Origin: a virus
Length of the DNA stretch: 64,000 nucleotides
IMG/VR virus record: IMGVR_UViG_3300037400_003528
Coordinates: 1-64,000 of that record
Reading direction: 5' to 3' (one strand)
The notes under the pieces were generated by a model. That model searched no databases. It was given only the letters and a program-made list of their open reading frames with translations, and had not been told where the DNA came from. The position numbers and the translations under genes are program-made. Shown piece by piece: positions 47,024 to 48,774 of this stretch; position 1 is the first letter of the stretch, and every line of letters begins with the position of its first letter.

Positions 47024-47337
47024 TTTTTATCTCCTTCCTGTACTTGTTTGTTTGCTTCATTTGATGATACAAGTATATCGCATCTAATAGGTAAAAACAA
47101 TCGGCAGAATTAACAAAATTAAAGTATTTTAAAAATTCTTTTTGTGCAGTTTGACGAAACCTTCAGCAAGTTGCACAAAAACTGGTTCTAATTATTATAT
47201 AAAATATACAAAAAAAACATGAAATAAAATTGCACAAAAAACATAGCCTGTTTTTGTACAAAATAGAGAATTTTTTTCTACGTATTGCACAAAAATGGGA
47301 TATTTTTCACTTTTTAAATTTGTGCAAATTTTCCTCT

Positions 47338-47600
47338 TGACAACAGCAACCCATATATGATATAATTTTTCGGCCTTTGGTCGCCCAGTTCGTTAAAAAT
47401 TTAACAAGCGGTCTGCTGTGTTAGATTGTTAAAGTTTTAACAAGCCACATTGTTAAATAATTAACAATTTTAGGATAGAAAAATTTTAGAAAATTTTTTA
47501 AATTTTCCTCTTGACAAATCACACTCACGTGTGATATAATATTTTCGCCGCGCAGCGGCGAGTTCGTTAATTTTTTAACAATCCGCAAAATTGAAAAATC
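47338..47600 (+). promoter_or_regulatory. two further plus-strand promoters (47338 and 47511) each followed by two palindromic sites GTTAA-N6-TTAAC (4 sites in all)
   Basis: cgttaaaaatttaacaag / tgttaaagttttaacaag / tgttaaataattaacaat / cgttaattttttaacaat. Confidence 0.5.
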
Positions 47601-47984
47601 CGGTTTTTTATACAGGACCGGAAACCTGTTTTTTCTTTACTGAACGCCTGCCCAGTTTACTTTGACCATTTCCTTGTAGACCATTTCTACAAAATCTTTG
47701 TTTTTGTGCATCCAGTGGCTTTCTCTATCTGCCGGAATCCAACCTGTTTTAACCATTGCCTTAACCATTTCTTTCTTTGTCATTTTGTACCCCTTTCTGT
47801 ACTTTGCTTTGTTTCATTTGTTAATTATATGTTATCACACCTTTAACCCTTTGTCAACATATTTTTTGTACAGAAAAAAGTACATTTTAGGAAAATACTT
47901 TTTATATAATATTTTTTATTTTTTATGCTTGACAAACTGGTTATATATATGATATACTGTTTCGGAAAAACTCTATTGTATACA

Positions 47985-48060
47985 ATATCGTTTTATATAT
48001 TATTATTATTATTATTATTATTATTATTATTATTTGTTTGTTTGTTTGTTTGTTTGTTTA
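47985..48060. repeat. microsatellites (ATT)x12 then (TTTG)x6
   Basis: perfect tandem tri- and tetranucleotide runs. Confidence 0.9.
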
Positions 48061-48360
48061 GCGTTATGCCTTGACCTCAGTCACTAAAGTATGTTAAAGG
48101 TTTAACATACTTTACCGCTTTATTGTAATGGAGTGTGTTATTTTTTTAACATACTTCATTACTTTACTGTATTAAAGTGTGTTATTTTTTTAACATACTT
48201 TCCCGCTTTACTGTAACAGAGTGTGTTAAAAAATTAACACACTTCGTTACTTTACTGTATTAAAGTGTGTTAATTTTTTAACACACTCTGTTACTTTAGC
48301 GCGTTAAAGCACTAAAATTGTACTTTTTTAGTACATTTTAACACTTTAACGCGCTAAAGT
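48060..48360. repeat. ~5 tandem ~48-nt repeats each containing a GTGTTA-N6-TAACAC-type palindrome; candidate origin/operator array
   Basis: repeating ..actttactgtattaaagtgtgttatttttttaacatactt.. units. Confidence 0.6.
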
Positions 48361-48774
48361 AAATCATCAAAAAGGGACTTTTTGAAATTATCTGACAATT
48401 CAGCTTCTGGTGTGAGAATTGTCTGACAATTCAGATATATGAAAAAACGGCGCTTGCTGTAGAGCGCGCGCCGAGCGTTTTTATGGTATGATTTTTTAAC
48501 TCTGTTTTGTATTTTTGTATATAAAATAATTGGGGTGTTGGTTTTATTATTGTTTTATAAGGGCGTGCTATTCTACGCAGCGTTTATTTCAAACTTTTTG
48601 GCTACACAATGTTTGTCGATACTTTTTATGGGGGGTATATTTTCGGGAAAAAATTTTTAAAAAATTTGGAAATGACTATGCCCTCCACAACTCCCGTACC
48701 AAAAGTTTTTAAAAATCTAAATAACGGAATGATATAAAAAACCATTAATCCACATTCCCCTGCACCAAAAATTT

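Follow-up and report, generated by a model that had tools for sequence, protein, structure and literature searches.

The stretch of DNA analysed here (the window) comprises 64,000 nt, positions 1-64,000 of the viral record IMGVR_UViG_3300037400_003528, and all coordinates refer to it. From ~35.1 to ~47.8 kb it is filled with small minus-strand early genes, each with a consensus sigma-70-type promoter, and the right border of this ~12.7-kb block is a mostly non-coding region at 47.1-48.8 kb, which we call the hub. The hub contains plus-strand promoters, palindromes that resemble operators of the NADH/NAD+-sensing repressor Rex, microsatellites and a tandem array of further palindromes (Table 1). 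In a first-pass annotation the region had been taken as 1.6 kb free of genes, with the organisation of either an origin of replication or a repressor-controlled switch. It does hold a gene, of 48 aa, and a 64-aa gene is also present at its right-hand end. Two plus-strand promoters had been recognised, and both (P1 and P2) are perfect matches; a third promoter (P3), two sets of terminators, a 72-bp palindrome and a second hub at 33.4-35.1 kb had been overlooked.

All three promoters point rightward, against the leftward early genes. The P1 and P2 units form a 97-nt direct repeat (47311-47407 and 47485-47581), and the first palindrome after each of these promoters lies at the same offset, ~+18..+35 from the predicted start. 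Two palindromes of the form GTTAA-N6-TTAAC had been ascribed to each promoter. This form has no match in the window, as the spacing is N4; furthermore, three palindromes follow P1 (47390, 47426 and 47450) and one follows P2 (47564). P3 reads into the microsatellites and the array, with a predicted non-coding transcript of ~520 nt, and its equivalents stand ahead of the microsatellite in L112 and L206 (L-numbers denote loci that we fetched from related viral contigs). The array does consist of five palindrome-centred units, with a period of 44 bp and not the ~48 bp reported earlier; the units alternate, and a period of 88 scores better than one of 44. At 47599-47635, weak hairpins close the minus-strand 48-aa gene and, on the plus strand, the P1 and P2 transcripts. 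A counterpart of the GC-rich terminator downstream of the array is found after the arrays of L089, L112, L206 and L126.

Table 1. Features of the hub and of its counterpart at the left edge of the early-gene block
Feature	Position	Strand	Remarks
TTGCACAAA / TTTGTGCAA elements (n = 6)	47139(-), 47171(+), 47230(+), 47251(-), 47285(+), 47318(-)		span 47139-47327
Promoter P1, TTGACA-N18-TATAAT + TG extension	47337-47366	+	12/12; predicted start ~47373
Rex-type operator TCGTTAAaaatTTAACAA	47390-47407
Rex-type operator TTGTTAAagttTTAACAA	47426-47443
Rex-type operator TTGTTAAataaTTAACAA	47450-47467
Promoter P2, with TG extension	47511-47540	+	12/12; duplicate of P1 unit
Short GC hairpin after P2	47546-47560
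Rex-type operator TCGTTAAttttTTAACAA	47564-47581		~+18..+35 of P2
Weak bidirectional terminator-like hairpins	47599-47635		sequence conserved in L206
48-aa early gene (MTKKEMVKAMVKTG...), with ribosome-binding site	47637-47783	-	own promoter 47857-47829; paralogues in L112
Promoter P3, TTGACA-N18-TATACT + TG extension	47929-47958	+	11/12
(ATT)~13.7 microsatellite	47993-48034
(TTTG)6.8 microsatellite	48033-48059
Five tandem 44-bp units, palindrome-centred	48085-48304		sites 48091, 48135, 48179, 48223, 48267
72-bp palindrome on CTTTAGCGCGTTAAAG / CTTTAACGCGCTAAAG	48291-48362		28-nt arms, 89% complementary
Direct repeat ATTATCTGACAATTCAG / ATTGTCTGACAATTCAG (CTGACAAT repeat)	48387-48434
GC-rich bidirectional terminator, CGGCGC...GCGCCG + T-run	48449-48485		closes P3 unit
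Conserved non-coding block	48490-48770		80% identity to L112
64-aa gene	48775-48969	-	conserved in L112
Left-edge cassette: promoter, GC hairpin, Rex-type operator TTGTTAAatatTTAACAg (35046-35063)	34986-35063	+

The palindrome GTTAA-N4-TTAAC (equivalently GTTA-N6-TAAC) occurs in eight exact copies in the window, seven of them within 47392-48282, and at up to one mismatch there are 20 matches against 7.2 expected. With its flanks it becomes the 18-bp sequence TTGTTAA-N4-TTAACAA, which has been published as the Clostridiaceae-specific operator of Rex. The motif obtained by DNA affinity purification sequencing (DAP-seq) for Rex of C. thermocellum agrees with this 18-mer and was validated by electrophoretic mobility shift assay; TTGTGAA-N4-TTCACAA is the Rex consensus of other Firmicutes. 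Compared with TTGTTAANNNNTTAACAA (the alternative being TTGTGAANNNNTTCACAA), two sites of the window are exact (47426 and 47450), three have one mismatch (47390, 47564 and 35046) and five have two or three outer mismatches. The last five are those of the array, whose form, (A/G)TGTTA(A/T)-N4-TTAACA(C/T), is a variant of the operator at its outer positions: all deviate from the consensus at the outermost position, and two of them also at the last base of the arm. At up to two mismatches the window has 10 matches to the 18-mer against 2.4 expected, seven of which fall within 900 bp, and all 10 sites lie at the two edges of the early-gene block. No LexA box was found in the window. Readings of the motifs as a sigma-54 promoter or as TnrA/GlnR, PrfA, NrdR, CodY or Noc sites were dropped, since these differ in spacing or sequence.

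The left edge of the block has a second, motif-related non-coding hub (33380-35070). It contains direct repeats of TTGTTAAAAA/TGTGTTAAAA half-sites (33390-33470) and four copies of GGGCAACTTTT (33590-33725), and at 34840-34960 it repeats vocabulary of the right hub, namely ACGCGTTAA, CTTTAGTGTG, TGCACAAAAA and TTTCGGGAA, followed by the cassette with the Rex-type site. The operator lies at +26..+43 of the cassette promoter, and the module of promoter, hairpin and operator is also present in L112, L125 and L130. As to the refuting condition set in the first-pass annotation, the palindromes are not unique to the hub, as they also occur at 35046 and in the intergenic gaps of relatives, and they have a candidate binding protein, Rex.

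An indication that these sites are recognised by a protein comes from a comparison with L206, the closest relative. In the orthologous P1/P2 segment, none of the 56 positions in the operator arms has changed, as opposed to 6 of the 16 positions in the N4 centres and 95 of 450 (21%) in the background (p = 6e-6); the promoter hexamers are likewise unchanged (0/24). Invariant arms around a drifting centre are the mark of a dimeric protein reading the arms, and by this measure the operator arms are under strong purifying selection, with the centre left free.

Similar sites recur in related phages. Viral contigs were searched for pairs of neighbouring palindromes, and more than 119 were recovered, of which ~40 share genes with the window; searching by an 85-aa neighbour gene yielded one uninformative locus (L006). 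The close relatives each have a single main cluster, with 5-24 sites, in the equivalent place between the early genes and the conserved non-coding block. The half-sites fall into two classes, I (TTGTTAA) and II (GTGTTAA), which combine as I/I, II/II and hybrid I/II sites. As sites of all three kinds replace one another in the same architectural position across the window, L206, L112 and L089, a single binder for them is likely, and the pattern is not that of covariation in an RNA stem. The loci of relatives also hold TTGTGAA-N4-TTCACAA and versions with mixed half-sites, so that the two known variants of the Rex site are represented along with hybrids between them. In L047, for instance, 13 sites are T-type, 4 are G-type and 5 combine the two. 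A matrix pooled from 515 sites in 85 sequences (loci selected by motif, loci selected by the exonuclease gene, and the window) has the consensus gaTTGTTAAa..tTTAACAAtc. The enrichment is also seen in a control set of 80 loci (937 kb) from relatives chosen by gene and not by motif, with 53 Rex-like sites against 4.1 expected and 69 LexA-like sites against 12.1 expected.

Some of the related loci have tandem arrays of Rex-type sites with no promoters between the copies. In L041 (898-1155) there are 11 copies with an exact 24-bp period, L002 (7924-8126) has 10 copies at 20-25 bp, and a pure tandem array is present in L028 as well. Operators for other host repressors are found among the Rex-type sites of relatives. 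Gram-positive LexA (Cheo) boxes number 6-21 per locus in L026, L047, L072, L012, L122, L028, L016 and L082, reaching 21 per 11 kb, and in some cases a LexA-like palindrome also serves as the stem of a terminator. L047 further contains, at 2723-2749, a perfect copy of the heat-shock operator of HrcA, the controlling inverted repeat of chaperone expression (CIRCE; TTAGCACTC-N9-GAGTGCTAA), with three sites of the Rex type and three boxes of the LexA type beside it; no other CIRCE is present in 2.1 Mb of fetched loci. A different palindrome, GTTAGT-N4-ACTAAC (e.g. GTTAGTCATGACTAAC), occurs near hubs, as in L002 (7205-7280 and 7800-7850), and in the gene-selected loci. With 33 copies it is the second commonest 6-N4-6 palindrome of the gene-selected relatives, and the commonest of mixed composition.

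Based on these observations, we give a probability of about one in two to the reading that the hub serves for control or titration and is based on the Rex repressor of the host. The identity of the motif, its enrichment, the selective constraint on it, its recurrence in relatives and the anatomy of the hub are shown by the data; that Rex binds the sites, and with what effect, we infer. Host Rex dimers would occupy the sites at low NADH and leave them as NADH rises. Bound to the +18..+35 sites of P1 and P2 and to the array transcribed from P3, Rex would obstruct or gate the non-coding or antisense transcription that runs rightward, and after replication of the phage genome the numerous copies of the site could draw Rex off host promoters. 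Alternatively, the sites may serve to insulate neighbouring transcription units. Titration or insulation fits better than classic promoter repression, because most sites in relatives lie upstream of promoters and because pure tandem arrays exist. A tblastn search with three Rex sequences found no Rex homologue in the window or in 1.19 Mb of relatives' loci, so the binder would be the host's. The TTGTTAA-N4-TTAACAA motif is in use among Clostridia/Bacillota.

Several observations speak against the Rex reading, or at least against its simplest form. None of P1, P2 and P3 has a protein-coding target. In relatives whose early genes are all co-directional, the sites are mostly 60-240 bp upstream of promoters (61, versus 11 downstream), which is not classic repression geometry. 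Arrays of at least three exact sites were found in only 3 of the 80 gene-selected loci, and only in closer relatives. Array sites have extended arms (AAGTGTGTTAA...TTAACACACTT) that go beyond the 18-bp Rex site, a hint that an additional constraint or another binder is involved. The bins of metagenome-assembled genomes that include relatives are mostly Clostridia/Bacillota, and such binning is no evidence of a host. Three early winged-helix paralogues encoded by the phage itself could bind DNA. Finally, an AT-rich microsatellite flanked by site arrays and a promoter is reminiscent of an origin, and the Rex model leaves it unexplained.

The winged-helix paralogues lead to an alternative that we regard as unlikely, in which a dimeric repressor encoded by the phage, with one of the three proteins as a candidate, binds the palindromes in the manner of stoperators, and the match to Rex is mimicry or coincidence. 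The three proteins (37675-38082, 40247-40666 and 42292-42657, minus strand) are 121-139 aa long and 56-61% identical. In the predicted structures of all three the C-terminal winged helix is confident, with a regional predicted local distance difference test score (pLDDT) of ~82-91, and Foldseek matches the models to HxlR, MarR, ArsR and MecI at a root-mean-square deviation of 1.2-2.4 A over ~60-67 residues. A phage protein could also account for arms that exceed the Rex core and for arrays that are restricted to closer relatives, as would be expected if the binder were specific to a lineage. However, homologues of the winged-helix proteins were found in only one array-bearing locus (L113, 30% identity) and are missing from most, the family has no similarity to Rex, and the paralogues have no match to any curated family, DNA-binding ones included; comparison with Pfam, PHROGs and NCBIfam likewise assigned no DNA-binding function to the neighbours of the hub. 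A phage repressor would moreover have to explain sites that reproduce both known Rex variants as well as their hybrids, and that keep company with operators of host LexA and with CIRCE.

The P3 unit could instead be a replication origin, in which the promoter activates or primes an AT-rich (ATT)n(TTTG)n unwinding element and the tandem repeats are iterons, but we consider this improbable. The two microsatellites that the first-pass annotation had pointed out are real. They are the only ones in the window and form the most AT-rich point of the hub, which is one of eight stretches of at least 93% AT in the window, and after them come five evenly spaced palindromes, that is, tandem repeats beside an AT-rich element, with a consensus promoter reading into the tract. 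L206, L112 and L089 keep the order of promoter, AT-rich tract, site array and GC hairpin, and AT-rich DNA lies beside the arrays in L002 and L083 too. The position of the tract is kept and its length varies: L206 has (ATT)~30(TTTG)9 at 7330-7448, L089 has (ATT)21 at 9071-9133, and mixed AT repeats take its place in L112. The variation, from ~13+7 to ~30+9 units, is the pattern to be expected of a slippage-prone locus. In L126, L128 and L093, however, a small plus-strand gene replaces the microsatellite. Nor does the cumulative GC skew, which had been suggested as a check, place an origin here, as its minimum is at 53.5 kb, where the coding strand switches, and the skew is negative throughout the hub; this test is weak, because skew also follows gene orientation. 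No cluster of DnaA boxes was found: there is no exact TTATCCACA in the window, and the hub has one one-mismatch match (48746). The flanking open reading frames encode small proteins without matches to replication families, with no recognisable initiator, helicase or primase among them. In addition, the supposed iterons are the same operator that also follows promoters (47390-47581 and 35046) and that occurs in many intergenic gaps of relatives. Of the two functions named in the first-pass annotation, it is thus the operator that finds support, in the constrained arms, the fixed +18..+35 placement and the identity with the Rex operator, and the origin does not.

Another possibility that we weighed is a boundary function at the early (host-takeover) block, with the hub as an untranslated repeat or injection-stop region like that of T5, the edge of a terminal repeat, or a packaging signal. 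The untranslated region of T5 is similarly large and repeat-rich, and it lies next to the pre-early genes, with repeats, inverted repeats, palindromes and eight DnaA boxes (Davison, bioRxiv 10.1101/866236). The early block of the window, in which each gene has its own promoter, is bracketed by the two motif-related hubs, and the nearest cultured relatives of an exonuclease encoded by one of the early genes (38% identity) are from ~140-kb Enterococcus phages. Several contigs end at arrays. We rejected these ends as genome termini: the hub is internal in long contigs, and the breaks are therefore attributed to the repeats. We saw no sign of terminal repeats or physical ends, the borders on either side of the block have motifs in common and no long homology, the terminase gene is 7-8 kb away, and the ordered set of DnaA boxes known from T5 is absent from the hub, where the boxes are of the Rex type. 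We regard a role of this kind as very doubtful.

Least probable of all is that the palindromes are RNA hairpins within non-coding transcripts from P1, P2 and P3, the P3 product being a structured RNA of ~520 nt: consensus promoters and terminators do enclose units free of open reading frames, the plus strand folds at -184.8 kcal/mol (z = -12.8), and two units with a G in the 5' arm opposite a T in the 3' arm would form G-U pairs on the plus strand only, but the minus strand is equally anomalous (z = -16.4), as for any DNA palindrome, so that folding cannot separate the strands and gives no basis for choosing between a function in DNA and one in RNA, the arm sequence is conserved without compensatory changes, hybrid half-sites that would break outer stem pairs are common in relatives, and no Rfam family reaches its gathering score in 46900-49000, where the sub-threshold matches are to generic (miRNA-type) hairpins.

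A further element of the hub can be related to the promoter cassettes of the phage family. The annotation had started the region with four copies of TTGCACAAAAA. This motif is indeed enriched, with 15 matches at up to one mismatch in the window against 5.5 expected, five of them within 47139-47295, but the copies are three exact ones on the plus strand, and two with one mismatch and one with two mismatches on the minus strand. The upstream element of the family's cassettes is ATTGCACAAA-TTTYGGGAT-N~15-AAATTTGTGCAAATTTTCCTC-TTGACA, with distances that are fixed in many cassettes. Relative to the -35 hexamer its halves are [GT]TGCACA at -60..-41 and TGTGCA[AC] at -30..-11, and among 218 cassette promoters across loci these are present in 58 and 46, respectively. 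In the hub, the pair at 47285 and 47318, joined by TGGGAT, is the complete upstream element of P1, and the other elements are orphan or degenerate; altogether there are one complete and two degenerate upstream elements. The TTGCACAAA/TTTGTGCAA elements differ from L206 at 5 of 65 positions, compared with the 21% of the background. Judged by this arrangement, the TTGCACAAAAA copies belong to the plus-strand promoter cassettes of the family, as their upstream element, and do not form a separate system.

Nine consensus plus-strand promoters are found from the left edge of the early block onwards (34986, 38558, 39998, 41240, 42175, 43850, 44721, 45488 and 46261). Each is directly followed by a GC-rich hairpin of 35-45 nt and variable sequence, and each cassette adjoins, back-to-back, the promoter of an early gene on the minus strand and is aimed at the 3' end of the neighbouring gene. 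These cassettes would produce antisense or short hairpin RNAs. At P1 the 5' GC hairpin is degenerate.

Downstream of the array, the motif of the 72-bp palindrome recurs in L090, L044, L002 and L005 and at 34860-34905 of the window, and pairs resembling the direct repeat at 48387-48434 are found near the hubs of L002, L126, L128, L112 and L206. In the conserved block at 48490-48770 there are repeats of the CTACGCAGCGTT type, a run of six G, TTTCGGGAAAA and ACCAAAA(A/G)TTTTTAAAAA, the last in two copies. The counterpart of this block in relatives has a Rex-type box of the form TTGTGAA-N4-TTCACAA, which is degenerate in the window.

With respect to its genomic setting, the window is AT-rich, at ~31% GC, and appears to come from the genome of a large phage. 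It has 29 tRNA genes and one ROOL RNA, and Rfam models matched nothing but tRNAs and ROOL across the whole window. The ROOL RNA is full-length (14887-15483, minus strand; 279 bits, gathering score 99) and lies inside a 13-kb array of 28 tRNA genes. A plus-strand structural module extends from ~53.8 kb and includes a terminase-like gene (56015-57148). Many in-frame stops under the standard code occur in its genes (53800-60400, the terminase-like gene included), and there is a tRNA with anticodon CTA at 11091-11167 (minus strand). These two features indicate that the TAG stop codon is recoded in the late, structural genes, to which recoding appears confined, and that the early minus-strand genes are read normally. 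The type of promoter, the ribosome-binding sites and CW_7/choline-binding repeats point to a Gram-positive host. The best explanation for the source is a large, TAG-recoded phage of Gram-positive gut or rumen bacteria. A nucleotide search of 46000-50000 against 50,697 GenBank phages gave no match. Other minus-strand genes of the window encode an 808-aa protein with major-vault-protein shoulder and repeat domains (27634-30060), a 520-aa protein with DUF2828, DUF7788 and vWA domains (3978-5540) and an isochorismatase-family hydrolase (30087-30611); for the last, a role as nicotinamidase in NAD salvage had no support at curated cut-offs.

We tentatively suggest a broader picture, which is possible but carries less weight than the Rex reading of the hub itself. 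The phage may belong to a TAG-recoding family that infects gut or rumen Clostridia and that has arrays of host-repressor operators in non-coding hubs (Rex in all members examined closely, LexA in some, HrcA/CIRCE in one). Such arrays might tie phage development to the NADH/NAD+ (or SOS) state of the host, or might act after replication as a repressor sponge that derepresses host genes for fermentation, the SOS response and chaperones. If so, this would be the first link of the Rex redox sensor to phage biology. It is known that phages sense damage to the DNA of the host via LexA; they would then also read or rewire the redox and fermentation state of the host, which is relevant to anaerobic gut and rumen communities, whose metabolism is governed by redox balance. 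It would also be a concrete case of natural arrays of transcription-factor-binding sites on a replicating genome; we found no literature report of Rex boxes in phages or of operator-decoy arrays. The Rex reading would account for non-coding hubs of a kind that is prominent in large phages without a cultured representative.

Among known systems, the closest is the set of clostridial Rex operators (ROP), which have the same 18-bp inverted repeat with an AT-rich centre, T-type and G-type half-sites, and a tendency to form pairs or clusters near promoters. Unlike in a Rex regulon, the sites here are on a phage, with 10 in the window and up to 24 in relatives, compared with ~10-30 predicted sites and up to 128 DAP-seq peaks in a host genome. 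Moreover, the phage sites follow promoters that lack a coding target, or form tandem arrays, and no gene of fermentation or redox metabolism is under their control.

Some phages are controlled by the LexA of their host, as are GIL01 of Bacillus thuringiensis and CTXphi of Vibrio. In these phages too, operators of a global host repressor lie in the phage control region, whether in place of a repressor gene of the phage or in addition to one, and relatives of the phage studied here carry many LexA boxes beside the Rex-type sites. The sensor in our case would respond to redox state (Rex) and not to DNA damage, the window lacks a LexA box, and the sites are far more numerous. The injection-stop region of T5 shares with the hub its large non-coding extent beside an early block, its crowding with repeats and its boxes for a host DNA-binding protein. 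In T5, however, these are DnaA boxes within a known terminal repeat, whereas the boxes here are of the Rex type and the phage is unrelated. Iteron origins, such as lambda ori and plasmid oriV, resemble the hub in having tandem dyad sites next to an AT-rich tract that transcription enters, but an initiator gene, DnaA boxes and a skew signal are missing here, and the same sites are also dispersed. The last comparison concerns the promoter-stem-loop cassettes (PeSLs) of T4-type phages and the stoperators of cluster A mycobacteriophages, which are many dispersed copies of one operator. Our phage likewise has small cassettes of promoter and hairpin between its early genes as well as dispersed copies of a single operator. 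The differences are that its cassettes fire against the genes, and that the operator is the site of a host repressor rather than that of a phage immunity repressor.

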